In this document: piece by piece, positions 29,699 through 45,578 of the stretch | Numbering within the stretch: position 1 is the stretch's first letter | How the letters are laid out: each line of letters opens with the position of its first letter | Origin: an uncultured bacterium | GTDB taxonomy: Bacteria > Eisenbacteria > RBG-16-71-46 > CAZHEV01 | Length of the DNA: 64,000 nt | Reading direction: 5' to 3' | NCBI GenBank assembly: GCA_964531335.1 | Contig: CAZHEV010000008.1 | Coordinates: 68,452 to 132,451 of the forward strand | Position numbers and translations under genes: made by a program | Notes under the pieces: model-generated | The model's database searches: none | Told to the model about the DNA's origin: nothing | Seen by the model: only the letters and a program-made list of their open reading frames with translations

Positions 29699-29940
29699 TA
29701 TACCCTAACTCCTCATGAAGGCGAGCACCCGGCGCAAGCTCCATATCACCGGTATGGCGCCGAGCGCAGAGATGACGACCAGAGTGGCGGTCTCCTGCGA
29801 AACCCCCTGCAAGGACCGCGTGTAGACGGAGCTCAGATCGGCCGCGACTCCCACAAGGCCCGACAGGAGGCCGGAGACCCACTTCAAAGGCCCCCAGGAC
29901 CCTGAGGACACGGCATCGACGGCAGAGGGCCTCGTCGCTA

Positions 29941-30126
29941 TCAATCTCCAGACCCCATGGGGATTTCCATTATCTCCGAGATCTCCTCGTAGCGGGCTTC
30001 GTTCATGTAGAACAGCGTGAGCGCCGTCCTGTAGCCCTCGGGGAGTCGCTCCATCAGCCCCCTCACGCGCCTGGATATGTCCTGCCTTTCTATACGCTCC
30101 TCGAGGCTCTCCGGCGCTCCGTCCAT
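29941..30126 (-). pseudogene. orphan fragment encoding only sigma-70 region 4 (ECF-type) HTH, truncated at both ends
   Basis: LPEGYRTALTLFYMNEARYEEISEIMEIPMG matches region 4.2 but stops before the usual TVKSR. An in-frame stop lies immediately upstream of the ATG. Only 30 nt separate it from the preceding gene. Confidence 0.45.
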
Positions 30127-30156: not shown

Positions 30157-33100
30157 CTACTTCAGGCGGGGAACCCGCCCCGGAGTGTACGGGGCGCCCG
30201 CGTTCTCCAGCTTCTCTTCCAGTGCCCTGAGATCCTCCTCCACGAGACGTGTAAGCTCCTCGAGCACGGGCTCGAAGCTCTCCTCGGCTATCCTCAGGCT
30301 CTCCCTGTTCGTCTGCGTCGGAGAGGAGGTGGACTCCCAGCTACCGTAGACTATCTCGCTCACCCGCTCCGTTATCGACGGAGGCGTCGGCTCCTGCCTC
30401 TTCCTTATGGTCGGGTCGCCCTGAAGCTCCATCCTCAGGTCGGCTAGGCGAAGCTCCAGAGACCTGGCCTCGTCGATCCAGCTTTGATCGCCCTCCGGCG
30501 CGTCGCGCACCGCGACCTTGATGTGATCGATCCTGCTCTGCGCCTCGTCCGCCAGCTTTATCGCGCCAAGGACCGCACGCTGCAGGGCTCCCGTCTCCTT
30601 CTGGAACTCGACAAGCTCGCCCCAGTCGTCCGCGGGTAAGGTGGCGAGACCTATTGGAACGGCCTCGAAGCTCTGGGGCTCGCCCATGGGGGTAACCTCT
30701 CCCTCCACTCTCTTTGCCATGCTGACCGTATAGGTCCCCGGGGCGACCATCGGCCCGCGCGGCGGCGTGCTCCAGGGGGTACGCCTCACCCAGGGGGTCG
30801 TGGTGGCCGGCCGCGAGGAGGGGTATCTCAGGTCCCAGGCTACGCGGTGGATGCCCTTGCCCACAGGTCCGGTGATCCGCCGCACCACATCCCCGTCGGA
30901 GTCTCTTATCGTGAAGATGATCGCGGGCTCCTCCTCCCTGTCTTCGAGGCGAAGCTCCTCCCAGGAGGGATACTCGATCCGCTCGCCCTCCTCGAGCGCT
31001 ATCTTCTCCTTTTCCCTGCGCATCTGCTCCTTGGTCTTCAGCGTTTCCTTCAAGTAGTACGTGAAGACCGCGCCGTAGGGCGGGTTGGGGGCGAAGTAGA
31101 AGTTGTCGCCGCGATTGGCCTTCTCCTTTCCGCCGAGGGGCGTGCTCTCATGGTAGAGGTAGGTCTTCTTCACCGGGAACAGGACGGCCTCTTGCCGCAG
31201 GCGCTCCTCGTCCATGAACCGCAGCGGCGTGTAGTCGTCGAGTATGTAGATGCCCCGGCCGAATGTGCCAACGGCCAGGTCGTTCTCGCGCCGCTGAATG
31301 TCGAGATCCTTCGCCACTATGGTCGGGAAGCCCCCGGTCAGCTCAACCCAGTGCGCGCCGGCGTCATATGTGAAGTACACCCCGAACTCCGTGCCCGCGA
31401 AGAGCAGGCTCGGATCCACGTGGTCCTGCTCTATCGCGAAGACCGTGCCGCGCTCCGGAAGGTCGCCGGTTATGGAGGTCCAGCCGCGGCCCATGTCGGT
31501 GCTCTTGAAAGCGTACGGCTTGAAGTCGCCGTTCTTGCGATTGTCGAACGCCGCGAAGACCGTGCCCGCCTTGTGCCGCGATGCCGTGAGCTCGCTCACA
31601 TAGGTGTACTGGGGCACGCCCTTGACCTTCTCTATCTTTCTCCAGTTCTCCCCCCCGTCCTCCGTGACCTGGATCAGGCCGTCGTCGGTGCCCACGTAGA
31701 TGAGCCCTTCCTGCATGGGTGACTCGGTCAGCGCGACGCAGTTTCCGTAGTAGGAGGTGGACATGTTCTTCGCCACGGCGTCCACGCTCTGGATTATGCC
31801 CATGACCTCGAGCTGGTTGCGGTCCACCTGTCTCGTAAGGTCCGGGCTCACCGCCTCCCAGGAATTGCCGCGGTCGTCCGTGCGGAATAGTATATTGCCC
31901 GCGTAGTAAAGGCGCGTCGGCGAGTGGGGGCTGAGCAGAAGCGGCGAGTTCCAGTTCCAGCGGATAGCCGGCTCGTCCTTCCCCGGCTGGGGCCGGATCA
32001 TCAGGGCCTCGCCGGCGGCCTTGTCGTAACGCGCCAGGCCGCCGTACTGAAACTGCGAGTACACGATGTTAGAGTTGGTGGGATCGACCTGCGTCTCGTA
32101 GCCGTCTCCGCCGAGGGTGATTACCCAGTCCGCGTTTATTATCCCACTCGCGCTTATGGTCCTCGACGGCGCGCCGAGGCTGTTGTTGTCCTGCGTGCCG
32201 CCGTACACGTTGTAGAAGGGCCTGTCGTAGTCCACGCTCACCCGGTAGAACTGGGTCACGGGCAGGTTCGACTTGAAGTCCCAGGTCGCGCCGCGGTCGT
32301 ACGTCTCGTATATTCCCCCGTCGCAGCCCGCGAGCAGGTGGTCCGTGTTCTCGGGGTCTATCCACAGCGCGTGATCGTCCACGTGCTTGTAGTTTATGCC
32401 CACCCGCTCGAACGTCTTGCCTCCGTCGTGGGTGACCCTCATGAAGGTGTCCATGGAATAGACCCGGTCGACGTTCTTGGGGTCGGCGAAGATCTCGTTG
32501 TAGTACTGGGGGCTGCTGCTCAGGTAGTCGCTCATCTTCCGCCAGTTGGCGCCCCCGTCCGTCGAGCGGAAAAATCCCTGCTCGTCCTGGGCGGCCTCGA
32601 TGATCGCGTAGATCACGTCCGGGTTCGCAGGCGAGACCGCGAGCCCTATCTTGCCCTTGTCCACGCCGGGGATGCCGTTGGTGAGCTTCTTCCAGCTTGC
32701 GCCCGCGTCCGTGGATTTGTAGATGGCCGACTCCGGACCGCCGTCTATAAGCGTCCAGACGCGGCGGCGGCGCTGGTAGGAGGAGGCGTAGAGGACGTCG
32801 GGATCGCGCGGGTCCATGTGCACCTCGTTTACGCCCGTGTCCTCGCTTATCTCGAGGGCCAGGTCCCACGTCTCTCCTCCGTCGCTCGTCTTGTAGAGGC
32901 CGCGGTCGCCTCCCGCCCTCCACAGAGGGCCCTGAGCGGCGACGTAGACCACGTCCGAGTCGCGCGGATCGACCGCGATCATCCCTATGTGCTCGGACTC
33001 CTTGAGCCCCATGTTCTTCCAGGTCTTGCCGCCGTCCAAGGACTTGTAGACGCCGTCCCCGTACGAGACGGAGCGCTGGCTGTTGTTCTCCCCGGTCCCC

Positions 33101-33447
33101 ACCCAGACCGTGAGCGGGTTGTTGGGGTCGAGCGTGATACACCCTATGGAGTAGCTGCCCTGGTCGTCGAAGATGGGCTCCCACGTCGTACCACGGTTTT
33201 CCGTCTTCCACACGTTTCCGGAGCAGACGGCCACGTAGTACTCCCACGGTTTCTCGGGATTGACGGCGAAGTCACCTATCCGGCCCGATGTCGCGGCGGG
33301 CCCCAAGCACCTGAGCTTGAGACCCGAAAAAGTGCCGGAGCTCATCGGCCCCTTGTCCCCGCCGTCTTCCTCCCCTTGCCCGTAAGCCGGTCCGGCCCCG
33401 GCAAAGATCAATAGCGTCACCAACGATATCGCCGCCAACCGCCTCAT
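30157..33447 (-). CDS. BNR/Asp-box repeat protein, sortilin/VPS10-like (xyloglucanase-type) beta-propeller tandem, exported
   Basis: Signal peptide. Many SxDGGxTW Asp-box repeats (SLDGGKTWK, TSDGGETWD, STDAGASWK, STDGGANWR, THDGGKTFE, and others). 1096 aa. Confidence 0.8.
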   Translation of the reverse strand: MRRLAAISLVTLLIFAGAGPAYGQGEEDGGDKGPMSSGTFSGLKLRCLGPAATSGRIGDFAVNPEKPWEYYVAVCSGNVWKTENRGTTWEPIFDDQGSYSIGCITLDPNNPLTVWVGTGENNSQRSVSYGDGVYKSLDGGKTWKNMGLKESEHIGMIAVDPRDSDVVYVAAQGPLWRAGGDRGLYKTSDGGETWDLALEISEDTGVNEVHMDPRDPDVLYASSYQRRRRVWTLIDGGPESAIYKSTDAGASWKKLTNGIPGVDKGKIGLAVSPANPDVIYAIIEAAQDEQGFFRSTDGGANWRKMSDYLSSSPQYYNEIFADPKNVDRVYSMDTFMRVTHDGGKTFERVGINYKHVDDHALWIDPENTDHLLAGCDGGIYETYDRGATWDFKSNLPVTQFYRVSVDYDRPFYNVYGGTQDNNSLGAPSRTISASGIINADWVITLGGDGYETQVDPTNSNIVYSQFQYGGLARYDKAAGEALMIRPQPGKDEPAIRWNWNSPLLLSPHSPTRLYYAGNILFRTDDRGNSWEAVSPDLTRQVDRNQLEVMGIIQSVDAVAKNMSTSYYGNCVALTESPMQEGLIYVGTDDGLIQVTEDGGENWRKIEKVKGVPQYTYVSELTASRHKAGTVFAAFDNRKNGDFKPYAFKSTDMGRGWTSITGDLPERGTVFAIEQDHVDPSLLFAGTEFGVYFTYDAGAHWVELTGGFPTIVAKDLDIQRRENDLAVGTFGRGIYILDDYTPLRFMDEERLRQEAVLFPVKKTYLYHESTPLGGKEKANRGDNFYFAPNPPYGAVFTYYLKETLKTKEQMRREKEKIALEEGERIEYPSWEELRLEDREEEPAIIFTIRDSDGDVVRRITGPVGKGIHRVAWDLRYPSSRPATTTPWVRRTPWSTPPRGPMVAPGTYTVSMAKRVEGEVTPMGEPQSFEAVPIGLATLPADDWGELVEFQKETGALQRAVLGAIKLADEAQSRIDHIKVAVRDAPEGDQSWIDEARSLELRLADLRMELQGDPTIRKRQEPTPPSITERVSEIVYGSWESTSSPTQTNRESLRIAEESFEPVLEELTRLVEEDLRALEEKLENAGAPYTPGRVPRLK

Positions 33448-33471
33448 TTGCCAATCCTCCTTAGGTTAGTC

Positions 33472-35193
33472 TCAAGGTCTGCCGCTCTCGGGCTTGCAGA
33501 TGACCGAGCCCATGACCGGCTCCTCTCCCTCGGCCTCGGCCCTTCTCCACACGATGTGGCCGTCCTCGATCACGCCGGCGCGGCCGGAGAACTTCACGAA
33601 CGCTATAGAGTTGTAATTCCACGACAGGTACTTGGAGTCGCCTCCGCCTATCGTGGTGATAAAAAGCCTGTTGGCCACGTTGCCTATCGACTCCGCCTGA
33701 TCGGCCGGCCACTCCTTGTCCCCCCTGCTCGGATCGACAGGGACCCAGCCGTAGTTGGGCAGGTAGACCTCGACCCACCTGTGGTACGCCTCGTCCACGC
33801 TGGCCTCGTCGCCGCGCATGGCCGTGCCCGCCTCGTATCTCGCGGGAAGGCCCGCCGACCTGACCATCGCTATGTAAAGGAAAGCGTACTCGGAGCAGGA
33901 CCCGGTGCCCCGCTTTATCAAGGTGGCCGGCACGTCCCATCCGCCAACCATCTGATACTCGAGCTTGTCTATCACCCAGTCGAAGGCTTTTCTCGCTATC
34001 CAGTACGGCCTCTCCTCGTCGCCTATCGCCTTTTTGACCGCGGCCTTCAGCACCGGGTCGTCCATCCTGTACCGGGTGCCGTCCACCGTGTACTGCTTTG
34101 AGATATCCCTGGGGACGCTCTTCAGCGGGCCGACCTTTTCGGGTCTCACGAAGTAGCGGAGGTGCCCCACCTTGCCCCGGGCGCTGTAGCTCGCCTCCAC
34201 GCTCTCGCCGGCCTGGACGTCGGTGAAGACGAAAGAGGCCACCTTCTGTCCCCAGCGATCCTCCACGAAATCGGGCATTCCCCCGTCGAAGGCTATGTCC
34301 TCGAGCCGCTGATTCTCGAGGCTGTCGGGCGGTATCGCGACGTTGATCACCCCTTCGGTGACCACGCCCGGGCCGTCGTTTCTTATGACGTGCCTGAAGT
34401 CGAGCATCGTCTCGCGCCAGTCCTTGACCAGGTACGGGTCCGTGTCCATCACCTCGAGGCCGTAGATGTTCTGGGTCTCGAAATCGGAAACCCAGAGCAT
34501 GCCTTGGCCGAACGCCAATCCGTTGGGATACGCGTCGGGGGAGTCCAGCGTGCCCAGCACAAGGCCCCCTTCGCGGGTCTCCATGTGCAGCTCGTCGCGG
34601 ATCCTATCGGAGACCCAAAGATAATAGCCGTCCCAGGCCAGCGCCGTGATGTGCGCCGACGGAGCCTTGAAGTAGGAGAGAATGGTGCCGTCGTCGGGAA
34701 TGAGCTCGTATATCTTGTCCTCCCCGTCGTCGCCCAGCCACAACGACGTGCCGTCGAAGGCGAGCCCCTTGGGAGATCGCCCGGGGGTCTCGTAGCTGGC
34801 CTGCACCTCGCCGGTGGCCGGATCGAGCTTGAAGATCTTCCTCGAGGCGCTGTCGCTGACGAACAGGTGCCCTTCGCCCCACGCCAGCCCTTCCGGCCTG
34901 TAGCCGGGCGCTTTGATCGTGCCAAGCGTGGTCCCGTCCTCGGGCGATACGCGGTACAGCACTCCCTCGCGCCAATCGGCCACCCACAGGCTTTCGCCGT
35001 CCCAGGCCAGATCCGAGGGGCTCGCGCAAGGAGCGGAAAACTCGGCCATGACATGCCCCGGGGGCGCTGCTTGCGCGGGCGCTCCAAGGCCCATGGCAAG
35101 AACCATGGCGGCCGTTGCGGCGACCGACACGATTCCGCGTCCCGAAATGAAGAATCTCCTGATACCATCCGTTGCCGTGAGGAATGTAGCCAT
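33472..35193 (-). CDS. exported protein with N-terminal glutamine-cyclotransferase-like beta-propeller and C-terminal transglutaminase-like cysteine protease core
   Basis: Repeated LAWDG..LWV(S/A)D blades. The C-terminal GTGSCSEYAFLYIAMVRSAGLPAR ... HRWVEVYLPNYGWVPVDPS gives a Cys/His/Asp transglutaminase-core triad pattern. Confidence 0.75.
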   Translation of the reverse strand: MATFLTATDGIRRFFISGRGIVSVAATAAMVLAMGLGAPAQAAPPGHVMAEFSAPCASPSDLAWDGESLWVADWREGVLYRVSPEDGTTLGTIKAPGYRPEGLAWGEGHLFVSDSASRKIFKLDPATGEVQASYETPGRSPKGLAFDGTSLWLGDDGEDKIYELIPDDGTILSYFKAPSAHITALAWDGYYLWVSDRIRDELHMETREGGLVLGTLDSPDAYPNGLAFGQGMLWVSDFETQNIYGLEVMDTDPYLVKDWRETMLDFRHVIRNDGPGVVTEGVINVAIPPDSLENQRLEDIAFDGGMPDFVEDRWGQKVASFVFTDVQAGESVEASYSARGKVGHLRYFVRPEKVGPLKSVPRDISKQYTVDGTRYRMDDPVLKAAVKKAIGDEERPYWIARKAFDWVIDKLEYQMVGGWDVPATLIKRGTGSCSEYAFLYIAMVRSAGLPARYEAGTAMRGDEASVDEAYHRWVEVYLPNYGWVPVDPSRGDKEWPADQAESIGNVANRLFITTIGGGDSKYLSWNYNSIAFVKFSGRAGVIEDGHIVWRRAEAEGEEPVMGSVICKPESGRP

Positions 35194-35265
35194 GACGTTC
35201 TCCTCCTGCTCAACCCACCCACGTTACGCTGCCGGCCACGCCGCGCAGCTCAGGGAAGCGACGGA

Positions 35266-35961
35266 TCACTCTCCCTCTGCGAGCCTCTTTATTAGAAACG
35301 CCTGCTTGCACACGCGCTTTTTTTCACGGGAGATCCTAGCCCCCGAGGAAGGCAGTGTCTCCTCATAAATCATCGCCGTGCCCAGTGGCGCCGGCCCGAA
35401 CCCACTCGCAGCGCCACCCGTCCCGCAGGCGCCTCGCTCGGCAGCCCTGACCTCCCCGGGCGTCGCGCCGTCGGGCGTCGCAGCCGCTCTAGGGACGGCC
35501 TGAAGCGTTATCCTTATGGAACCGGCCTTGCCCCCCGATGCGAGCTCGTGCACGAGACGAAGCTCCCTGCACGGATCGATCCACGTGACAACGGACTTCC
35601 CGGCGAGTGAACGGTCTGAAAAAAACGGGATCGTGTCGCCCAGGGCCTCGAGCTGGCGTAGCATGTCCCGCTCCGGCTCCCAGTGAGGGTACCACATAGA
35701 AAAGGTCCGAACCGTGGCGATGACGTTCCACACGTGTTCGGGCCTTGAGTAAACCAGAAGCGAGCAGCTAAGGGTGACATAACGCCCGCTTTCCACCGAG
35801 GCCGTATCCACACCCGTGGGCCACACCTCGTCCACCGCGGACGCGGAACCGCGCGCCGGTCGCGCCCCTGCCAAGGACCCGGATTCGAACGCGCCATCGC
35901 CCATCGCAACAAAGGCCGCCGCCAGCACGGCGGCAAAGGTGACAGCCTTCGCCTGCTCCAA
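35266..35961 (-). CDS. exported SRPBCC-like (polyketide cyclase/START-fold) protein
   Basis: Signal-like N-terminus. Central region resembles Polyketide_cyc2-type SRPBCC proteins (VTLSCSLLVYSRPEHVWNVIATVRTFSMWYP). 51 bp downstream of the radical SAM gene on the same strand. Confidence 0.45.
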   Translation of the reverse strand: MEQAKAVTFAAVLAAAFVAMGDGAFESGSLAGARPARGSASAVDEVWPTGVDTASVESGRYVTLSCSLLVYSRPEHVWNVIATVRTFSMWYPHWEPERDMLRQLEALGDTIPFFSDRSLAGKSVVTWIDPCRELRLVHELASGGKAGSIRITLQAVPRAAATPDGATPGEVRAAERGACGTGGAASGFGPAPLGTAMIYEETLPSSGARISREKKRVCKQAFLIKRLAEGE

Positions 35962-36012
35962 CTCAACTCCGAATTTCCAGGGAACGCGGCCTCGATCGGA
36001 ACGTACGGCGGC

Positions 36013-37422
36013 CTACCAGCGCCTTATGCCCGATTTCCTGAAGAAGTTCTTGTAGGCTTCCATCCGGGCGCACGATGCCAGGTCGGGGCCGTGGATATTG
36101 CCCCTATCGGCGAAAACGCTGGCCATGCAGCCGGAGCCGCAGTGCTCCAAGAGCTGACATGAAGAGCACTTCTTGACATCAACGGCTTTGAGCTTCCTTA
36201 TCTCCGTCGCCTTCCCCTCAGCCTCAAGCCAGATATCCTCAATGAGCTTATCGCGCACGTTTCCCATGACGAACTTGCGGTGACTCAGCGAAGCGCATGG
36301 GGTCACCGCGCCGTCAGGCCTGATGTTCAAATGGTGAACCGCGGCGCTGCAACGATGCCGCTCATTTACGGGCTTCTGTGCCAGCTCGGCCCGCCCCGCA
36401 TCGTCCGCGCGGGAGGAGACACCGTGGAAAACCGCTTCCTCGACCCCCAGGAAGCGCTCGTAAGCCCTCATATACTCCTTCTGGGATAGCAGCAGGCTCT
36501 TGTTCTCCCGCGCCCTGCCCTGCATCAGCGAGCGGCTGACCGCGTAGGAGGCGTCGTACTTGCGGTAAAGCTCGAGCAGCGCTTTGAGTTCGCCGGTGTT
36601 CAGGCGGTTGAGAACGGTGTAGAGCCTTAGCCTGACGCCCCTTTCCGCCAGGAGCTCGATGCCCCTGATCGTCTTCTGGAAAGCCCCCCTGACCCCCCTG
36701 AAAAGGTCGTGGCTGTCCGAACGCATTCCATCAAGGCTCACCCCAGCCGTCTGGATGCCCGAGTCGGCTATCCTGTCGGCGATCGCGCCGTCTATCAGCG
36801 TCCCGTTCGTCATCAAGGTGATCCCGAGCCCCTGGGACGAAAACGCTTCCACTATCTCGAAGAAATCCTCCCGCGCCAGGGGCTCCCCGCCCGTGAGGCT
36901 GATCTCGTATGCCTGTAGCTTGCTCAACTGCCGGGCGATGTCCTGGAACTCCTCTACCGTCAGCTCCTTGAACCGCTGCGTGCCGAACTTGCCGTAGCAG
37001 TGCACGCACTTGAGGTTGCAATCGGCGGTCACCTCGATGCTGGCCGTGTGAAGAGGATAGTCCGTCTCGAGCACCGGCGGTATCTTAACGCTCTTCTCGG
37101 GACGGTCGCCGTCGAGGATGGAGATGATCTGCTCGGAGTGCAATGTATCCAGGACGTCGATCAGCGGGGCCCTCAGGTCGGCCTTGGGCTCGTGATATTT
37201 CCTGGCAAGGGAGTTCAGAATGGAGGCCACGGTGCGCCGGCCGTTGCAGTAGTCGAGCACCATGGAAAGGTGCTCGTTGATGTGGACCTTCTTACCCGAG
37301 CGAGGAAAGTACACCACACCCAGAAAGCGGCCGTTTGAGCTCGCGCGGTTTAAGAGGACCCTGTCCGATAGGACCGGGCAAGCTTTGTCGTTTAGCGACT
37401 CACTCATCAAAAGAAAAGCCAT
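36013..37422 (-). CDS. radical SAM/SPASM-domain peptide-modifying enzyme with N-terminal PqqD-like RiPP recognition element (RRE)
   Basis: N-terminal ~90 aa follow the PqqD/RRE pattern (VLLNRASSNGRFLGVVYF...NEHLSMVLDYCNGRRTVASILNSLARKY...LIDVLDTLHSEQII). CNLKCVHCYG is a CxxxCxxC radical SAM cluster. The C-terminal seven-Cys SPASM region is CSAAVHH...CASL...CSSCQLLEHCGSGCMA...C. GGGAG lies upstream of the ATG. Confidence 0.85.
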   Translation of the reverse strand: MAFLLMSESLNDKACPVLSDRVLLNRASSNGRFLGVVYFPRSGKKVHINEHLSMVLDYCNGRRTVASILNSLARKYHEPKADLRAPLIDVLDTLHSEQIISILDGDRPEKSVKIPPVLETDYPLHTASIEVTADCNLKCVHCYGKFGTQRFKELTVEEFQDIARQLSKLQAYEISLTGGEPLAREDFFEIVEAFSSQGLGITLMTNGTLIDGAIADRIADSGIQTAGVSLDGMRSDSHDLFRGVRGAFQKTIRGIELLAERGVRLRLYTVLNRLNTGELKALLELYRKYDASYAVSRSLMQGRARENKSLLLSQKEYMRAYERFLGVEEAVFHGVSSRADDAGRAELAQKPVNERHRCSAAVHHLNIRPDGAVTPCASLSHRKFVMGNVRDKLIEDIWLEAEGKATEIRKLKAVDVKKCSSCQLLEHCGSGCMASVFADRGNIHGPDLASCARMEAYKNFFRKSGIRRW

Positions 37423-37713
37423 CCACTCCCGGCAAACTTAGAGCACCCGCGGCTCGTGCGCGCTCGGGACCGTCCGCTCAAGGCCTGACTCCCCACTCAG
37501 GCAGCATCGCCGGGAACGGCTGTCCTATGTCCGCGGTCGCCGCGGCGCATAGCTCTAGTAAGCGGACATCACGGAGGGGTCACACCAGACCCGGCCGTGT
37601 ACCCCACAGCCGGTTAGTGTATATGCTACCCCCCCGTCGGGGCCACGGTCAAGGCAAAAGCCGGAGACCGCGTGGTTCCGCGGCCAGGTGTGCTAAGATG
37701 GCGTTGTGTTTGC

Positions 37714-38601
37714 ATGACCTTTCGAGACACGCCGGTCTACATCACAGGAGCAGTCTTGAGTTCCAAGGACAAAGGTGACCCGCCCCAAGTTACGATCGGA
37801 TACCAGAGCCTTCTGGCCGACGATGGCCCCCTGGGGGCCATCGCTTTCGCCGTCGAGCTGGGCCTCGGAGTCGTCGAGCTAAACGCCAATATGCCCTGGT
37901 ATTTCCCGGAGAGTCTCGACAGGGACCTGCGAGCCAGGGTAAAGGACGAGTCGCTTCGGACCGGCGTCGCCCTGGCCGTACACGCCCCTGAGGAGATCTC
38001 CTTCGTCTCACCTCATCCCTCCCTGCTCCAGGCCGGAGCGGACAGGATGAAGCAGTTCATAGAGATGGCCTCCGATATCGGAGCCACCGTCCTCACGTGC
38101 CACATGGGCGGAGGGCGTCTGGGCTGGTCCACCGGTGACAACAAGGTGCTGCGGCCGCATCAGGTATATCCGGATAGGATGAGAGAGTCGGTGTTGGCTG
38201 GTCTTCCCATGCTCGCAAGGATGGCCGATCAGGTAGGTGTGAAGCTGTCGGTGGAAAACGCCGGCTGTTTTGAGAAATCGTTCATTCAGCCGATCGTGGC
38301 GGAGGTAATGTCCCTATCGCCGCTTCACCTGACCTGGGACGTGGGCCACTCGAATCTCAGAGCCGGACGGCTGGACGAGCACGAGCGGTTCATATTCGCA
38401 AGGCTCGACAGGCTGGCCTTAATACACGTCCACGACAACGACGGCTTCGTGGACACCCACAGCCCCCTGGGAACCGGGACCGTCGATCTGCCCCGCGTGG
38501 TGGAAATATCCCGGAGATCCGGCGCGCCGATGTCCATTGAGATCCGCCCCCGCTCCCTGGTGCCCGCCTGCCTCGCCAGGCTGCGCGAGATTATCTCTTG
38601 A
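37714..38601 (+). CDS. sugar-phosphate isomerase/epimerase (xylose-isomerase-like TIM barrel) family protein
   Basis: AP-endonuclease-2/xylose-isomerase-like TIM signature (LGLGVVEL, VLTCHMGG, KLSVENAG, IHVHDNDG). Start could be GTG at 37672 instead. Confidence 0.7.
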   Translation: MTFRDTPVYITGAVLSSKDKGDPPQVTIGYQSLLADDGPLGAIAFAVELGLGVVELNANMPWYFPESLDRDLRARVKDESLRTGVALAVHAPEEISFVSPHPSLLQAGADRMKQFIEMASDIGATVLTCHMGGGRLGWSTGDNKVLRPHQVYPDRMRESVLAGLPMLARMADQVGVKLSVENAGCFEKSFIQPIVAEVMSLSPLHLTWDVGHSNLRAGRLDEHERFIFARLDRLALIHVHDNDGFVDTHSPLGTGTVDLPRVVEISRRSGAPMSIEIRPRSLVPACLARLREIIS

Positions 38602-38926
38602 CAGCTATACTTACGTTTAGTAATTTGCCCCTGGGTGGCCGAGGGGGCGGCGACCTGGCTCTCCCGCAGAAGGCCACAGGGCGGGCTCCGTCGCGCCACC
38701 CCAGCGCTGTAGCAGGCGCCCGGCTCCGCAAGATCTCAAGGCGCTCGATATTTTATCCTTGATGAGAAGCGCCGGGGCCGGTATAAGCCATCCATGGGAA
38801 CGGACTCGCCCGTGCCGGCCAATGTGGCGCCCGGGTCGAAAGAGTGCCGCGCGTCACCGGAACGGCGTGAGGCGAGCGCGCTCAAATATGCCCGGAAAGC
38901 TTTCTCAGCATCGGAAGGGAGGATCG

Positions 38927-39797: not shown

Positions 39798-39874
39798 CAA
39801 ATTGGACGTCCCCATCGTCTAGGCGGCCTAGGACACCGGCCTTTCACGCCGGCAACACGGGTTCGAATCCCGTT
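39798..39874 (+). tRNA. tRNA-Glu (anticodon UUC)
   Basis: Cloverleaf derived by hand: acceptor GTCCCCA/TGGGGAC, D-arm, anticodon stem CCGGC/GCCGG with loop CTTTCAC, T-arm ACGGG-TTCGAAT-CCCGT, discriminator G, and an encoded CCA. Confidence 0.8.
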
Positions 39875-40110
39875 GGGGACGCCACTTTTATTAGGATAAA
39901 TATGGAAGAGGAATGAGTAATGGGGAGATCTGCTATTTCCTGACAAGAAAGGCGTATAAAAAGGACTTCACTTCTTATTGGATTGAAGTCATAATTATAC
40001 AGAACTTCAGTAATGCAATCGCCGTAATTAATTGCGCCACAATCACTAATAGAGATAAATGGATAAAGTTATTGTCTTGGTCATCGCCCCGGGCCCGGAG
40101 GAAGGAGGTT

Positions 40111-40536
40111 GTGTCCGTAAGAAAGAGCGCTCAGGCCGCGATTCGAGCGATACGAGCAGAGGGTGGGATCGTGCGAACCAAGGATGCCCTAGATCTAGGT
40201 ATCGCGCCTCGTACTCTCTACTGGATGCGAGACAATGGAATCCTCGAAACAGTCTCTCGCGGTCTCTATCGTCTTGCCGACCAATCACCCCTGTCGAACC
40301 AAGATCTAACTACGGTGGCTGCCAGGATACCGAACGGTGTCGTGTGCCTCATCTCGGCTCTGGCCTACCACAACATGACTGCCGAGATCCCCTGGACCGT
40401 TGATGTCGCCCTGCCGAGGGGTGCAAAGGTTCCTCGGCTAAGGCATCCACCCGTCAGATTCATCTGGCGTTCAGGGGCGGCATTCCAGCAAGGGGTCCAC
40501 CTCTCGGTTCAGCCTCGAGAGCAGGTGCTATCATGA
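40111..40536 (+). CDS. AbiEi-family (type IV TA antitoxin-like) DNA-binding protein, probably 5'-truncated or decayed
   Basis: Matches the AbiEi_4 N-terminal domain (IVRTKDALDLGIAPRTLYWMRDNGILETVSRGLYRLAD...VVCLISALAYHNMT). GTG start after AGGAAGGAGG. Immediately preceded by an AT-rich segment after the tRNA. Confidence 0.55.
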   Translation: MSVRKSAQAAIRAIRAEGGIVRTKDALDLGIAPRTLYWMRDNGILETVSRGLYRLADQSPLSNQDLTTVAARIPNGVVCLISALAYHNMTAEIPWTVDVALPRGAKVPRLRHPPVRFIWRSGAAFQQGVHLSVQPREQVLS

Positions 40537-41006
40537 TTCCGGTTTGGGTAGTCGATGTAGCACATTGGATACTAACAAATATTGGATTCCCCGGCACGCC
40601 GCCGCCACCCTTCCATCCCTAGAGGTGTGGTGGGAGATTTAAAGGGAGGGTTGTGCCTGAGAAAGTCGGGAGCGACCCCCATATGATTATGCCGTCTCCT
40701 TGTGCCGTTGTCGAGAACGTGCCGATCGAGGTGCAGATAATAGACGCTATAAGCGATGAATTGCCATTGCTGATCAAGCTTGACATGAGGGCCGCTTTAC
40801 GGCAGGTATTTATGTGGGATTTGGGGCTAAAGTCTGTATCCGAGACATTTGTTCTCTGACGGTCTGCGACCAACGGGCTTCCTGTCTAAGACCAGTGATG
40901 AGGCAAGTCCGATGTGTTGCAATTGGAAGGAGGTGTTGCCCGCCACGTAAGATCTAGCCTTGTATTATACCGCATCAGTATTGCACCCATTGCAGAGGAG
41001 AGAGAC

Positions 41007-42884
41007 ATGAAGAAATGCCCGTCCCTTCCGCGTGCCGCTTTTCTCACACTTGCCTGTATCGCGCTCGCAGCCTCCATCGGCTTATGGGGAGGATGCAGTG
41101 AGGAGACAGGCATTACAAATGTCGCCCAACAAGCAAATGACCAACAAGTTGTGCTAGACAAGGCGGCCCCTGGGGTTAAGGCTGTCATGGCGACTCAGGA
41201 CCGTTCCACCAATGCGTTAATGGGCCATCCCGAGGTTGTCGGTACCGGCACCGGGCTTGGTGATAACGGCGAGTTGGCGGTTGTGGTTTATACAATGAGT
41301 CCTGTGCCCCAAAAGGGCGCGTTCACGTCGGCGACCCTGGAAAATGTGCCGGCGCTCGATGCCATTCCCCAGACAATTGACGGCTTGCCCGTCAAGGTCA
41401 AAGTGACCGGCAAGTTCGTAATCCATGCCGATCCTACCGCTCGGTTCGCCCGTCCCGTTCCAATAGGCGTATCCACAGGTCATCCGGACATCACCGCCGG
41501 AACGATCGGCTGCCGTGTAAGGGACGGCCAGGAGAATGTCTACGCGCTGAGCAATAACCACATCTACGCCAATTCAAACGACGCATCCATCGGCGACAAC
41601 GCCCTACAGCCCGGCCCGAGCGACGGCGGCCAGGACCCGGAAGATGCTATCGGCACTCTTTACGACTACGAGCCGATCAAGTTCGACGGCAGCAATAACT
41701 ATATGGACGCGGCCATCGCCGTGACGTCCACCGGAAACGTCGGCACCTCGACTCCCTCAGGAGACGGGTACGGCACGCCGAACTCCACGATTGTGGATGC
41801 TTACCTCGGTCAGCCGGTGCAGAAGTACGGTCGGACAACTGGATGGACGCAGGGTGAAGTAGCCGAACTCAACGTGACCGTGACGGTCTGCTACGAAGGC
41901 TTTATCTGGTGCACGAAATCGGCTACATTCGCGGATCAGATTTCCATCACACCCGGTGAATTCAGTGGCGGTGGCGACTCGGGATCCCTTATTGTAACTG
42001 ACGACAGCAACAAGAACCCGGTCGGTCTGTTGTTCGCCGGCAGCTCAGATCGCACCATCGCCAACCCTATCGGTTATGTGCTGAACCGGTTCAACGTGAC
42101 CATCGATGACGGCAGCGGGGGTACCACCAACAACCCGCCGACCTCCGACTTCACCTATACGACCACGGATCTCACTGTGGACTTCACCGATCAGAGCACC
42201 GATTCGGACGGAAGCGTGGTCGGTTGGAGCTGGGACTTCGGTGACGGAGCCACTTCGACGTCACAGAATCCGTCTCACACGTACGGCGCCGACGGCACCT
42301 ACACAGTGTCTTTGACCGTGACGGACGATGACGGAGCGACCGGCACCTCATCGCAGGACGTCACTGTTTCGGGCGGCGGTACCACCAACAACCCGCCGAG
42401 CTCCGACTTCACCTATACGACCACGGATCTCACTGTGGACTTCACCGATCAGAGCACCGATTCGGACGGAAGCGTGGTCGGTTGGAGCTGGGACTTCGGT
42501 GACGGAGCCACTTCGACGTCACAGAATCCGTCTCACACGTACGGCGCCGACGGCACCTACACAGTGTCTTTGACCGTGACGGACGATGACGGAGCGACCG
42601 GCACCTCATCGCAGGATGTCACGGTCTCGAGCGGCAGCACCGGCGATATCACGCTGACCGCAACCGGATACAAGGTACGCGGGCGCAAGCACGCCGACCT
42701 CGAATGGAGCGGCGCGACGGGAACGCAGGTCGAGATATACCGCGACGGCGCCCTGATCGCCACTACCGATAACGACGGCTTCTACACCGATTCGACGAAC
42801 CAGGTTGGCGGTGGGTCGTTTACCTATCAGGTATGCGAAATAGGCGGTTCGCCTTGCTCCAACGAGGCGACGGTAAGCTACTAG
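41007..42884 (+). CDS. chymotrypsin-fold (S1-like, GDSG) serine peptidase lipoprotein with N-terminal pro-region-like domain, two tandem PKD domains and a C-terminal beta-sandwich domain
   Basis: Lipobox LWGGC. NNHIY (His), YMDAAIAV (Asp) and GGDSGSL (Ser) are arranged as in alpha-lytic-protease-like peptidases. Two 86-aa PKD repeats (WSWDFGDG...HTY...YTVSLTVTDDDG). Confidence 0.75.
   Translation: MKKCPSLPRAAFLTLACIALAASIGLWGGCSEETGITNVAQQANDQQVVLDKAAPGVKAVMATQDRSTNALMGHPEVVGTGTGLGDNGELAVVVYTMSPVPQKGAFTSATLENVPALDAIPQTIDGLPVKVKVTGKFVIHADPTARFARPVPIGVSTGHPDITAGTIGCRVRDGQENVYALSNNHIYANSNDASIGDNALQPGPSDGGQDPEDAIGTLYDYEPIKFDGSNNYMDAAIAVTSTGNVGTSTPSGDGYGTPNSTIVDAYLGQPVQKYGRTTGWTQGEVAELNVTVTVCYEGFIWCTKSATFADQISITPGEFSGGGDSGSLIVTDDSNKNPVGLLFAGSSDRTIANPIGYVLNRFNVTIDDGSGGTTNNPPTSDFTYTTTDLTVDFTDQSTDSDGSVVGWSWDFGDGATSTSQNPSHTYGADGTYTVSLTVTDDDGATGTSSQDVTVSGGGTTNNPPSSDFTYTTTDLTVDFTDQSTDSDGSVVGWSWDFGDGATSTSQNPSHTYGADGTYTVSLTVTDDDGATGTSSQDVTVSSGSTGDITLTATGYKVRGRKHADLEWSGATGTQVEIYRDGALIATTDNDGFYTDSTNQVGGGSFTYQVCEIGGSPCSNEATVSY
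42120..42635 (+). repeat. 2 x 258 bp near-identical direct tandem duplication (encodes two PKD domains)
   Basis: Copy 1 at 42120..42377 and copy 2 at 42378..42635 differ by only a few nucleotides. The ORF track shows identical out-of-frame peptides at 42106..42315 and 42328..42573. Confidence 0.9.
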
Positions 42885-42924
42885 CCGTGTGCCTTTTGGA
42901 TGACTGATCCGTAGGTTCTTTCTG

Positions 42925-42960
42925 GAGACGGGCCCCACCGCTTGGGGCCCGTCTCTTTTC
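42925..42960 (+). terminator. rho-independent terminator (13 bp perfect stem GAGACGGGCCCCA/TGGGGCCCGTCTC, loop CCGCT, then TTTTC)
   Basis: Lies 40 nt after the peptidase stop codon. Confidence 0.7.
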
Positions 42961-43043
42961 AGCGAACCTCCGAGAGGTAATGTCCAACGCAACGGGGGGA
43001 GTCGAGGCGTTGGGTCCGTCTCGGTTGGAGGGCAAATTCCACG

Positions 43044-43388
43044 ATGTGGTGTAAGTACTTACCATCTGTCTTCTCTCGAGTTACAGTTGTATTGCTGTTA
43101 GCCTTCGCCCCGTTGGCCTGTAGCGGCGGCCGCCAGTCCGACGGAGATGGGAAGAAAGATATGCCAGAAAGCGACAAAACCATCGAGCAGGTGCTCAGTG
43201 AGCACACCGATGAGTGGATGTCCATCCCAGGCGTAACTGGGACGGGTCTTGGGAAATGTGGTGAGGAGCTTTGCATTCGCGTGTTTGTAACACGGGAACT
43301 GGATGGAGTTCGGGAAAAGATACCGCAGCGGATTGACGGGTACATCGTTGAAGTAGTCCTGACAGGGAGCTTTCATGCACGCGACTGA
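43044..43388 (+). CDS. small lipoprotein homologous to the N-terminal pro-region of the adjacent S1-like peptidases
   Basis: Lipobox LACSGG. TIEQVLSEHTDEWMSIPGVTGTGLGKCGEELCIRVFV...IDGYIVEV aligns with the peptidase N-terminus (VKAVMATQDRSTNALMGHPEVVGTGTGLGDNGELAVVVY...IDGLPVKV) and with the paralog at 49448..49780. Confidence 0.6.
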   Translation: MWCKYLPSVFSRVTVVLLLAFAPLACSGGRQSDGDGKKDMPESDKTIEQVLSEHTDEWMSIPGVTGTGLGKCGEELCIRVFVTRELDGVREKIPQRIDGYIVEVVLTGSFHARD

Positions 43389-44058
43389 TTTGAAGGTAAC
43401 TGAGTTTTCAGTAGGGTAATTACAGTCAAGCACGGCGAAATGAATCTGCGCAGGCCGTATACGGAATACGTGAAATGCGCGAAATGGCCGCCGCGTTTGG
43501 GTAGATATGCAGCTGACAATCGCCCGTCCCTCCCGAAAATTCCATCCGGGTTCGAACTGACGTGGTCCCCGGAATTCGGACAGTATGTTAAGGTGGACTC
43601 TAAGGATTCTCATGCCCTCATGGTGCGGGTTGGGTTTGGACATCCACCATGCTACGATTCCATCTGGGTTATCATCACCGACATAGTCTTTGTGAGGCAA
43701 CACTCTTCCGTGCGCAAAAAGGCCTTCTTCCATGTTGAGGTCCACCCCTTAAGCGAATCAACAGCTTGCAGCCATTCCCCCAACCGGTTCGAACTCGCCA
43801 TCAAATGAGACGCCAGAGTCACCCCTTTGAATATCCGCTATCCCCGGCAACTTCAGAAATGGTATATTCATGGGGCATCGTCCCGGACGCCGAGACGGAC
43901 ATTGGCATCGTGGAGACCGCCGCTTGCGGCCTGACGGCGATATCGCGCACAATGTGTCAGGCCGTGCCAGCTAATTCTGCCCCAACAAGTTCCGGTTTTA
44001 CAGGGACGAATCCGCCGGTCTTTGGATTCGTCTTACGCCAACCCAGGAGGAAGACAAA

Positions 44059-45243: not shown

Positions 45244-45578
45244 CCGTCCGCTGATTGCCTGGAAGGTCCCGGGACCTGAGGCAATTGTGGCGGAGCTCCT
45301 GCCCTCCACTCGGGGAGCGGATAATACTCCAGAGGCAGCTTCCGGAGGACCTCATCCTTCAGCCGGCCAAGGTGGGCTAGTCCTCAACCAGCAGCTCCTC
45401 TGTCACTGGGCCGAATAGCGCGTAATCTTTCTCGTCGCTGTCGCTGTTGATCGCGAGGGCTATCGTGATGTCGTGCTGGGTCAAGTGATACGCGCCTGTT
45501 CGATAACGGGGGTCGATCAGGCGTCTTCACTATCCGATGGAGCAGGCTTCCGACGAGTTCGGCTTGCCTGAGGCGATA

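Follow-up and report, generated by a model that had tools for sequence, protein, structure and literature searches.

An orphan-type maturase combining an RRE, a radical SAM domain and a SPASM domain in an uncultured Eisenbacteria-related lineage

We analyzed a 64,000-nucleotide stretch of contig CAZHEV010000008.1 (positions 68,452 to 132,451; the whole stretch is hereafter called the window, and all coordinates refer to it) from the genome of an uncultured bacterium of the Eisenbacteria lineage. On its reverse strand, at 36013..37407, the window encodes a 464-aa protein that combines a recognition element for peptides that are ribosomally synthesized and modified after translation (RiPPs), or RRE, with a radical S-adenosylmethionine (SAM) domain and a SPASM domain. 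Judging from its sequence, this protein is a functional member of an undescribed, clade-restricted subfamily of RiPP-type maturases. We tentatively favor, with a probability of roughly 45%, the reading that it is an orphan maturase, the precursor of which is encoded in trans.

The open reading frame (ORF) extends over 36013..37422 on the reverse strand and yields 469 aa if read from the alternative upstream ATG at 37422. The true start is most likely the conserved ATG at 37407 (protein beginning MSESLND), because it is aligned in all homologs and yields a 464-aa product identical to the database protein P0001; the five codons upstream of it are unique to the window among the homologs. A preliminary description of this DNA had reported a PqqD-like RRE, a CxxxCxxC radical SAM site and a seven-cysteine SPASM domain, and this layout proved right throughout. 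In the 469-aa numbering, Pfam profiles match residues 36-100 (PqqD, PF05402, 29.7 bits against a gathering cut-off of 23.4), 129-285 (Radical_SAM, PF04055, 94.4 bits) and 358-423 (SPASM, PF13186, 42.6 bits), and PF05402 is precomputed in 7 of the 10 members of the maturase family. Besides a partial TIM-barrel core, the radical SAM domain comprises the CxxxCxxC motif (C130, C134 and C137 in the 464-aa numbering, which is used from here on; 36997..37020, reverse strand), predicted to bind the radical SAM [4Fe-4S] cluster. The seven cysteines of the SPASM domain (C353, G366-x4-C371, C414-x2-C417-x5-C423-x3-C427 and C446; 36070..36351, reverse strand) are spaced as Cx17C with an embedded Gx4C, followed by Cx2Cx5Cx3C and a final C, in agreement with the pattern that defines the domain (PF13186/TIGR04085: Cx9-17Gx4C ... 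Cx2Cx5Cx3C ... C), and these predicted ligands would hold two auxiliary [4Fe-4S] clusters. All seven, along with the three cysteines of the CxxxCxxC motif, are invariant in the 10 family members.

The AlphaFold2 model of the maturase, built from a 30-sequence alignment (predicted local distance difference test score, pLDDT, 88.7; predicted template modeling score, pTM, 0.89), places a three-strand, three-helix domain ahead of the barrel. This N-terminal domain (residues about 9-95; 37123..37383, reverse strand) has the winged helix-turn-helix arrangement of an RRE, with three beta-strands followed by three alpha-helices, and constitutes a complete RRE that superposes on leader-bound lasso peptide B1 proteins at 1.9 Å. 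In full-length Foldseek searches, the top ranks are taken by SuiB, which installs the Lys-Trp crosslink of streptide, and CteB, which forms a Cys thioether, both of them RRE-radical SAM-SPASM RiPP maturases with solved structures. By domains and fold alike, the protein is a genuine maturase of this type, as the preliminary description had proposed. The window maturase shares the fold of these enzymes, but is only 16-19% identical to them; moreover, the precursor genes suiA and cteA adjoin the genes of their enzymes, whereas no precursor gene was found here, and the clusters of SuiB and CteB lack the genes for exported SRPBCC-like and transglutaminase proteins that accompany the window maturase. 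Identity to SkfB, the thioether synthase of the sporulation killing factor, is 19-20%; in SkfB, a twitch-like domain with a [2Fe-2S] auxiliary cluster takes the place of a seven-cysteine SPASM domain, and the precursor gene, skfA, is adjacent.

The maturase is not assignable to any named subfamily because none of the 25 best-scoring NCBIfam families, on which this placement rests, reaches its curated cut-off. The top match is MftC of the mycofactocin pathway (TIGR03962, 164 bits against 265, over residues 129-448). MftC modifies a ribosomal peptide at its C-terminus, and a glycosyltransferase is part of the MftC pathway; however, the RRE of the mycofactocin system is a separate protein, MftB, whereas that of the window maturase is fused, and no mftA, mftB, mftD or mftE genes are present in the neighborhood. 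PqqE (TIGR02109) scores 114 against 381, and no pqq genes lie nearby, as would be expected of a pqqABCDE operon. Among the sactipeptide and ranthipeptide maturases (AlbA, StsB, PapB and CteB types), StsB (137 against 625), AlbA (101 against 850) and PapB (85 against 340) all remain below their cut-offs, and no Cys-rich short ORF accompanies the gene; the resemblance to the CteB fold stands despite this lack of membership. The heme-related radical SAM enzymes (AhbD, NirJ and AhbC types) likewise score below their cut-offs where listed (AhbD, 160 against 500; NirJ2, 157 against 500; NirJ, 138 against 515), and the window protein contains an RRE. Neither QhpD nor the anaerobic sulfatase-maturating enzymes (anSME) are represented by a curated model among the 25 families; the cluster contains no qhpA, qhpB or qhpC and no sulfatase gene, and anSMEs lack an RRE, in contrast to the window maturase. 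Profile searches thus bear out the RRE and SPASM regions without linking them to a named subfamily. Neither of the two results that would have spoken for a non-RiPP enzyme was obtained: the N-terminal region does score as PqqD/RRE, and no non-RiPP model reaches its cut-off among these families.

The family is narrowly distributed. Among 5.8 billion protein clusters, it consists of about ten clusters at 63-100% identity, all from metagenomes or metagenome-assembled genomes (MAGs), beyond which identity falls to 31% or less, the two next-best scores belonging to double radical SAM fusions. Pattern scans detected no family member in 185,579 species representatives of the Genome Taxonomy Database (GTDB) and added one more metagenome locus only (L010). 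The ratio of nonsynonymous to synonymous substitution rates (dN/dS) in comparisons with five relatives is 0.06-0.17, at synonymous distances (dS) that are saturated (1.6-1.9), so that these lineages are not trivially close. Given this purifying selection and the invariance of every cluster cysteine, the gene is evidently functional. The RRE is the best-conserved internal domain (mean pairwise identity of 0.79, compared to 0.72 for the core and 0.71 for the SPASM domain), which argues for a conserved, sequence-specific ligand.

The same conservation bears on the possibility that the enzyme acts on a small molecule or cofactor, with the PqqD-like domain serving some other role and the exported SRPBCC-like protein encoded next to it binding a lipophilic product. 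The sub-threshold scores of AhbD and NirJ2 are about equal to that of MftC, SRPBCC folds typically bind small hydrophobic ligands, and genes for a family 4 glycosyltransferase (GT4) and an AP_endonuc_2 protein are neighbors in most loci, all of which would fit such an activity. However, an N-terminal domain that is a complete RRE, superposes closely on leader-bound proteins and is the most constrained domain of the enzyme is hard to reconcile with it: heme and cofactor radical SAM enzymes, as far as we know, have no RRE domain, and the scanned neighbors revealed no genes for heme d1 or siroheme. We therefore consider a small-molecule substrate improbable.

The short precursor gene that typically adjoins the maturase in a radical SAM RiPP cluster was not found. 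No plausible or conserved short ORF is present in the 306-bp gap upstream of the gene (37408..37713) or in the 51-bp gap downstream of it, and no cis-encoded precursor was detected in the eight related loci, in agreement with the preliminary description, which had found no Cys-rich short ORF on either side. The sequence read comprised 64 kb of the source genome and about 20 kb per relative. The upstream regions of eight loci were translated in six frames, and comparison of the resulting ORFs of at least 15 aa revealed no common peptide. One apparent shared upstream peptide, DPLH(D/N)VGF, was rejected as a conserved nucleotide block that is not coding, because a 1-nt indel interrupts its frame in the window and a stop codon does so in L006. 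When intergenic ORFs of at least 18 aa from nine loci (about 10 kb on either side) were compared all against all, no conserved small ORF emerged, the resulting clusters being only a tRNA, the lexA promoter/leader element and the leader of the maturase gene. Among the 25 most frequently matched of the 47 NCBIfam families hit by the 111 intergenic ORFs of the window (28-140 aa), there is no known precursor family; those listed are families of extracytoplasmic function (ECF) sigma factors, which are accounted for by a truncated ECF sigma fragment in the window, and one DUF2007-related family. A putative 35-aa ORF, MTQHDITIALAINSDSDEKDYALFGPVTEELLVED, located just downstream of an OprB porin gene (45377..45484, reverse strand), has a coding-like composition (GC content of 0.81 at third and 0.28 at second codon positions), but was set aside, as it starts with TTG, has no obvious ribosome-binding site and contains no cysteine.

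If the precursor is encoded in trans, the RRE would, by analogy with SuiB, CteB, SkfB and PqqE, capture a conserved recognition sequence of a ribosomally made substrate. The cluster bound by the CxxxCxxC motif would cleave SAM, generating a 5'-deoxyadenosyl radical that abstracts hydrogen from the substrate, and the two SPASM auxiliary clusters could assist in forming an oxidative crosslink (C-C, C-S or C-O) or in a related two-electron step. The substrate would be a short peptide encoded elsewhere in the genome, and the exported SRPBCC-like neighbor would not itself be the substrate but would play an accessory part, for example, by binding or carrying the product. The structurally closest RRE-bearing enzymes (SuiB, CteB and SkfB) all act on short peptides.

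The gene that follows the maturase gene (35266..35961, reverse strand; TTG start) encodes a 231-aa protein in which a signal peptide and a variable linker precede an SRPBCC/START fold. No Pfam family matches the window protein itself, but among 13 members and relatives of its family, 7 match AHSA1 and 5 match Polyketide_cyc2. In the AlphaFold2 model, the core has a pLDDT above 90, and Foldseek matches it to AHSA1-like proteins and the PYR/PYL receptors, with EF2215 and MLL2253 among the matches. By its modeled helix-grip (START/Bet v 1) fold, the protein is a member of the SRPBCC superfamily, and the signal peptide, the fold and the Pfam matches of the relatives together substantiate its earlier description as an exported SRPBCC-like protein. 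A low-complexity insertion of about 30 residues rich in Ala, Gly and Pro (residues ~160-192; 35380-35480), predicted to be disordered (pLDDT about 52), occurs in the window protein only and is absent in all orthologs.

This neighbor is the leading candidate for a protein substrate, and it shares the clade restriction of the maturase: when 1.84 billion representative proteins were scanned exhaustively with HMMER, its family comprised only 9 clusters at E<1e-10, against about 10 for the maturase. The pair at 35266..37422 is conserved in the relatives: in 7 of the 8 informative loci, from lineages whose dS is saturated, the SRPBCC gene follows the maturase gene, at a distance of 51-78 bp in five loci and of 239 bp in L008; synteny among related lineages alone is, however, no proof of a functional link. 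The SRPBCC-like protein evolves faster than the maturase (dN/dS of 0.22-0.34), and its single most conserved segment is the nearly invariant C-terminal nonapeptide LIKRLAEGE (35269..35295, reverse strand), with a pairwise identity of 0.97 compared to 0.50 for the mature protein and 0.75 for the next-best segment of this length (top 9-residue segment; permutation p = 3.5e-4). Two cysteines, C66 and C218, are present in all close members of the family and absent from the distant relatives.

These features suggest that the maturase might modify the SRPBCC-like protein in the cytoplasm before Sec export, the RRE docking on the tail LIKRLAEGE (...VCKQAFLIKRLAEGE) and a crosslink being formed at C66 or C218, with a chemistry akin to that of QhpD, which forms Cys-to-Asp/Glu thioethers in QhpC. 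RiPP substrates that carry Sec signals, can be protein-sized and have RRE-type partners are already known from the bufferins and the wider MNIO family (PMC12452194). The enzyme that matures bufferins, however, is a DUF692/MNIO protein and not a radical SAM enzyme, and bufferin-type precursors are Cys-motif proteins rather than SRPBCC folds. The TIM-barrel protein encoded next to the window maturase is an AP_endonuc_2 protein rather than a DUF692 one; an MNIO-like identity of this neighbor was considered and rejected, its match to PF01261 being generic and the other matches (CbiR, MJ1311) weak. We know of no precedent among radical SAM enzymes for Sec-signal-bearing, protein-sized RiPP substrates, and of no RRE-fused radical SAM enzyme whose substrate is a folded domain of about 200 aa.

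Several observations on the SRPBCC-like protein also run counter to its being the substrate. One relative, L004, has an intact maturase under purifying selection (dN/dS of 0.11) without an SRPBCC gene on its 12-kb contig. The proteins visible at the locus are weak candidates for a sole substrate. A pair of cysteines in an exported protein is more simply explained as a disulfide. The tail may be structural, given that a similar 'L..LAE(G)' helix is already found at the end of the distant relatives, and in the AlphaFold2 model it belongs to the C-terminal helix of the fold instead of forming a free peptide. Conservation is low in the signal peptide and linker (0.25), which fits badly with a leader bound by a nearly invariant RRE. 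In one distant-relative context, no radical SAM gene accompanies the SRPBCC gene, but this contig of only 1.2 kb is uninformative. Overall, we regard modification of the SRPBCC-like protein by the maturase as unlikely, albeit distinctly possible, and the full proposition that a folded, Sec-exported protein of about 200 aa is the natural substrate, recognized through its tail and crosslinked at one of the clade-specific cysteines before export, as rather doubtful.

The trans-encoded precursor has its own difficulties, and a group of findings weighs against it. Most RRE-fused radical SAM/SPASM enzymes have an adjoining precursor gene, and, to our knowledge, nearly all of the characterized ones were found through such a gene. 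No trans precursor candidate emerged from the 64 kb of this genome and the ~20 kb per relative, and neither an exporter nor a leader peptidase of the dedicated kind found in radical SAM RiPP clusters is encoded in the cluster. Furthermore, of all the neighbors, only the SRPBCC-like protein matches the narrow distribution of the maturase, and this co-restriction, the invariant tail and the two clade-specific cysteines are left unexplained by a precursor encoded elsewhere. The weights that we assign to the possible substrates rest on the prior expectation that RRE enzymes act on peptides, on the co-restriction and invariant tail of the SRPBCC-like protein, and on the counter-example of L004. Of the two kinds of substrate that the preliminary description had put forward, an exported protein and a precursor encoded elsewhere, both thus stand and the latter is given the greater weight; a crosslink in the exported transglutaminase protein, which it had included in the first, is unlikely, for want of any clade-specific feature in that protein.

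That protein (33472..35193, reverse strand; 573 aa) combines a beta-propeller with a transglutaminase core (Pfam Transglut_core), contains the triad Cys433-His471-Asp487 and is 76-82% identical within the clade. The propeller and the transglutaminase core that had been described earlier are both present, whereas the 'Gln-cyclase' label attached to the propeller found no support, Pfam yielding only weak matches to generic propeller families (Vgb_lyase, SGL and PQQ_2). The possibility that the maturase installs a crosslink or cofactor in this protein, or in the exported BNR protein encoded after it, draws on gene order: the transglutaminase gene follows the radical SAM or SRPBCC gene in every locus that reaches far enough, even though the flanks rearrange, and the genes share a strand, are separated by short gaps and have between them only weak matches to terminator patterns, all of which fall within coding sequence. 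However, the propeller/transglutaminase family has at least 1,600 homologs at 45-56% identity, the named ones, which also give a hint at the taxonomy of the lineage, mostly from Candidatus Eisenbacteria and some from Latescibacterota and Phycisphaerae (a search of GTDB species representatives yielded no usable match for this family), and three out-of-clade contexts (two MAG contigs, Eiseniibacteriota CP070702 and Latescibacterota CP070677) contain no radical SAM or SRPBCC neighbor, so that this protein is unlikely to be an (obligate) substrate. Its architecture, triad and C-terminus are alike inside and outside the clade, with no clade-specific motif, and the BNR and GT4 genes are variably present. 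We consider this possibility highly improbable.

The combination of an RRE with a transglutaminase core is reminiscent of lasso peptide biosynthesis, in which a B1 RRE protein works with a transglutaminase-like B2 protease, but this logic was rejected because the transglutaminase, a PF01841 protein, is exported and occurs widely without an RRE partner. A role of the exported transglutaminase core as leader peptidase would be speculative. Two other motifs were dismissed, namely, a twin-arginine (Tat) motif, RRFFIS, in the transglutaminase protein, which is not conserved in the orthologs, and the sequence AEGE common to the C-termini of the SRPBCC-like and transglutaminase proteins, which has 5 six-frame occurrences, about the number expected by chance by a rough estimate. 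In two of the three out-of-clade contexts (L012/L013 and L015), the propeller/transglutaminase gene lies near sulfatase genes (PF00884), and the L012 copy overlaps a hypothetical gene of 561 aa located after a YfhO-like gene. These surroundings may point to an involvement of the widespread family in cell-envelope or glycan processing.

Signals of operon organization and co-transcription that link the maturase gene with the downstream genes for exported proteins are apparent in the nucleotide sequence. In the direction of transcription, the maturase gene is followed by a 51-bp gap, the 231-aa SRPBCC gene, a 72-bp gap, the 573-aa transglutaminase gene, a 24-bp gap and the 1096-aa BNR gene, and the terminator-pattern matches on this strand between these genes are weak, all lie within coding sequence and do not exceed the number in shuffled sequence. 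A sigma-70-type promoter for this operon (TTGACC-18 nt-TAGCAT; 37623..37652, reverse strand) is the sole promoter-like site in 33300..38900 (5.6 kb), and the ATTTGCCTTGACCG block and the -10 region are retained in all eight aligned loci. Between the promoter and the gene lies a 5' leader of ~210 nt (37408..37622, reverse strand), with equivalents in L001, L002, L004-L008 and L010. It contains conserved blocks, including CCCCCTCC..., AGCCGTnACCGGC, GCCTGAG..TCAGG and GCCGGGAGTGGACGGCCTTCTTTCCATG, although its middle part is absent in L002, and it is not coding, given the frame-breaking indels between the conserved blocks and the stop codon in one ortholog. The leader may be regulatory. A riboswitch was considered and rejected: Rfam has no match to the leader at E<=1, and the evidence of structure is weak (covariation term of -0.3; folding z-score of -1.5).

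The last gene on this strand encodes an exported protein of 1096 aa with BNR/Sortilin-Vps10 repeats (30157..33447, reverse strand), identified with both Pfam and NCBIfam, which agrees with its earlier description as BNR/sortilin-like. In the relatives L001, L002, L005 and L006, this gene is separated from the maturase and its partners by GT4 or other genes, and it is absent near L010; the GT4 gene of the relatives is missing from the window, and the presence of both genes varies between loci. The preliminary description had treated these genes as a cluster of exported enzymes headed by the maturase; they do lie on the same strand, but they do not form one co-evolving unit, considering that the transglutaminase is widespread and GT4 and BNR are variable. 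Between the BNR gene and an M1 peptidase gene (29705-30126, reverse strand), a 61-aa ORF whose match to ECF sigma factors is confined to region 4 (best SigW, E 5e-9) is followed by a 79-aa hydrophobic ORF; this is probably the remnant of a truncated ECF sigma/anti-sigma pair.

On the other side, the divergent gene for an AP_endonuc_2 protein, a xylose-isomerase-like TIM barrel (37714..38601, forward strand; PF01261, 83 bits), adjoins the maturase gene in all 7 loci with an identifiable upstream gene, a count that leaves aside L006 and L008, in which the upstream gene is a cut, unidentified fragment. Altogether, the neighbors in the window encode the SRPBCC-like, propeller/transglutaminase and BNR proteins, M1 peptidase, AP_endonuc_2 and LexA, to which the related loci add GT4, M28 and a phosphodiesterase; no ATP-binding cassette (ABC) transporter, including the peptidase-containing (PCAT) type, is encoded among them. 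A defense-system reading of the locus was rejected, since PADLOC gave only generic similarity to a pVip core.

Further along the forward strand, divergent from the maturase operon, lie lexA and a tRNA-Glu gene. The interval from the AP_endonuc_2 stop to lexA (38602-38780) contains an element conserved at the nucleotide level, found also in L001 (1-110), L002 (1070-1260), L004, L005 and L010. On the lexA strand, it reads TTGACAGCTA-nACG-NN-CGTTTAGTA; the palindrome CTAAACG-N2-CGTTTAG, which the -35 box overlaps, is a candidate SOS (LexA) box of this lineage and is followed by a GC-rich conserved segment of ~90 nt (GGGTGGCCG...CGGCCACCC) without a match in Rfam. The tRNA-Glu(UUC) gene (39808-39884) is followed by a stretch of lower GC content (0.56-0.57 compared to about 0.62; window positions 39808-44000) that encodes an AbiEi-type antitoxin (39913-40536) and a Nal1-like protease that carries PKD domains in tandem (40914-42884), and looks like an island integrated at the tRNA gene.

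RRE-fused radical SAM/SPASM enzymes are a main source of new peptide crosslink chemistry, and orphan radical SAM/SPASM genes are common in metagenomes. In the present case, an RRE that is constrained at saturated dS, with no precursor in cis, points either to an unseen family of precursors encoded in trans or to an RRE that has been turned onto an exported folded protein. A trans-encoded precursor family, which we tentatively favor, would be one that has not yet been seen, in an almost unstudied candidate phylum. A protein substrate, if it is the correct answer, would extend radical SAM RiPP-type maturation to proteins, in parallel to the MNIO enzymes and bufferins, and were that substrate the SRPBCC-like protein, it would amount to a 'protein-sized RiPP' that a radical SAM enzyme produces in an uncultured Eisenbacteria-related lineage. 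The maturase and the co-restricted SRPBCC-like protein with its nearly invariant nonapeptide offer a specific, testable partner hypothesis.

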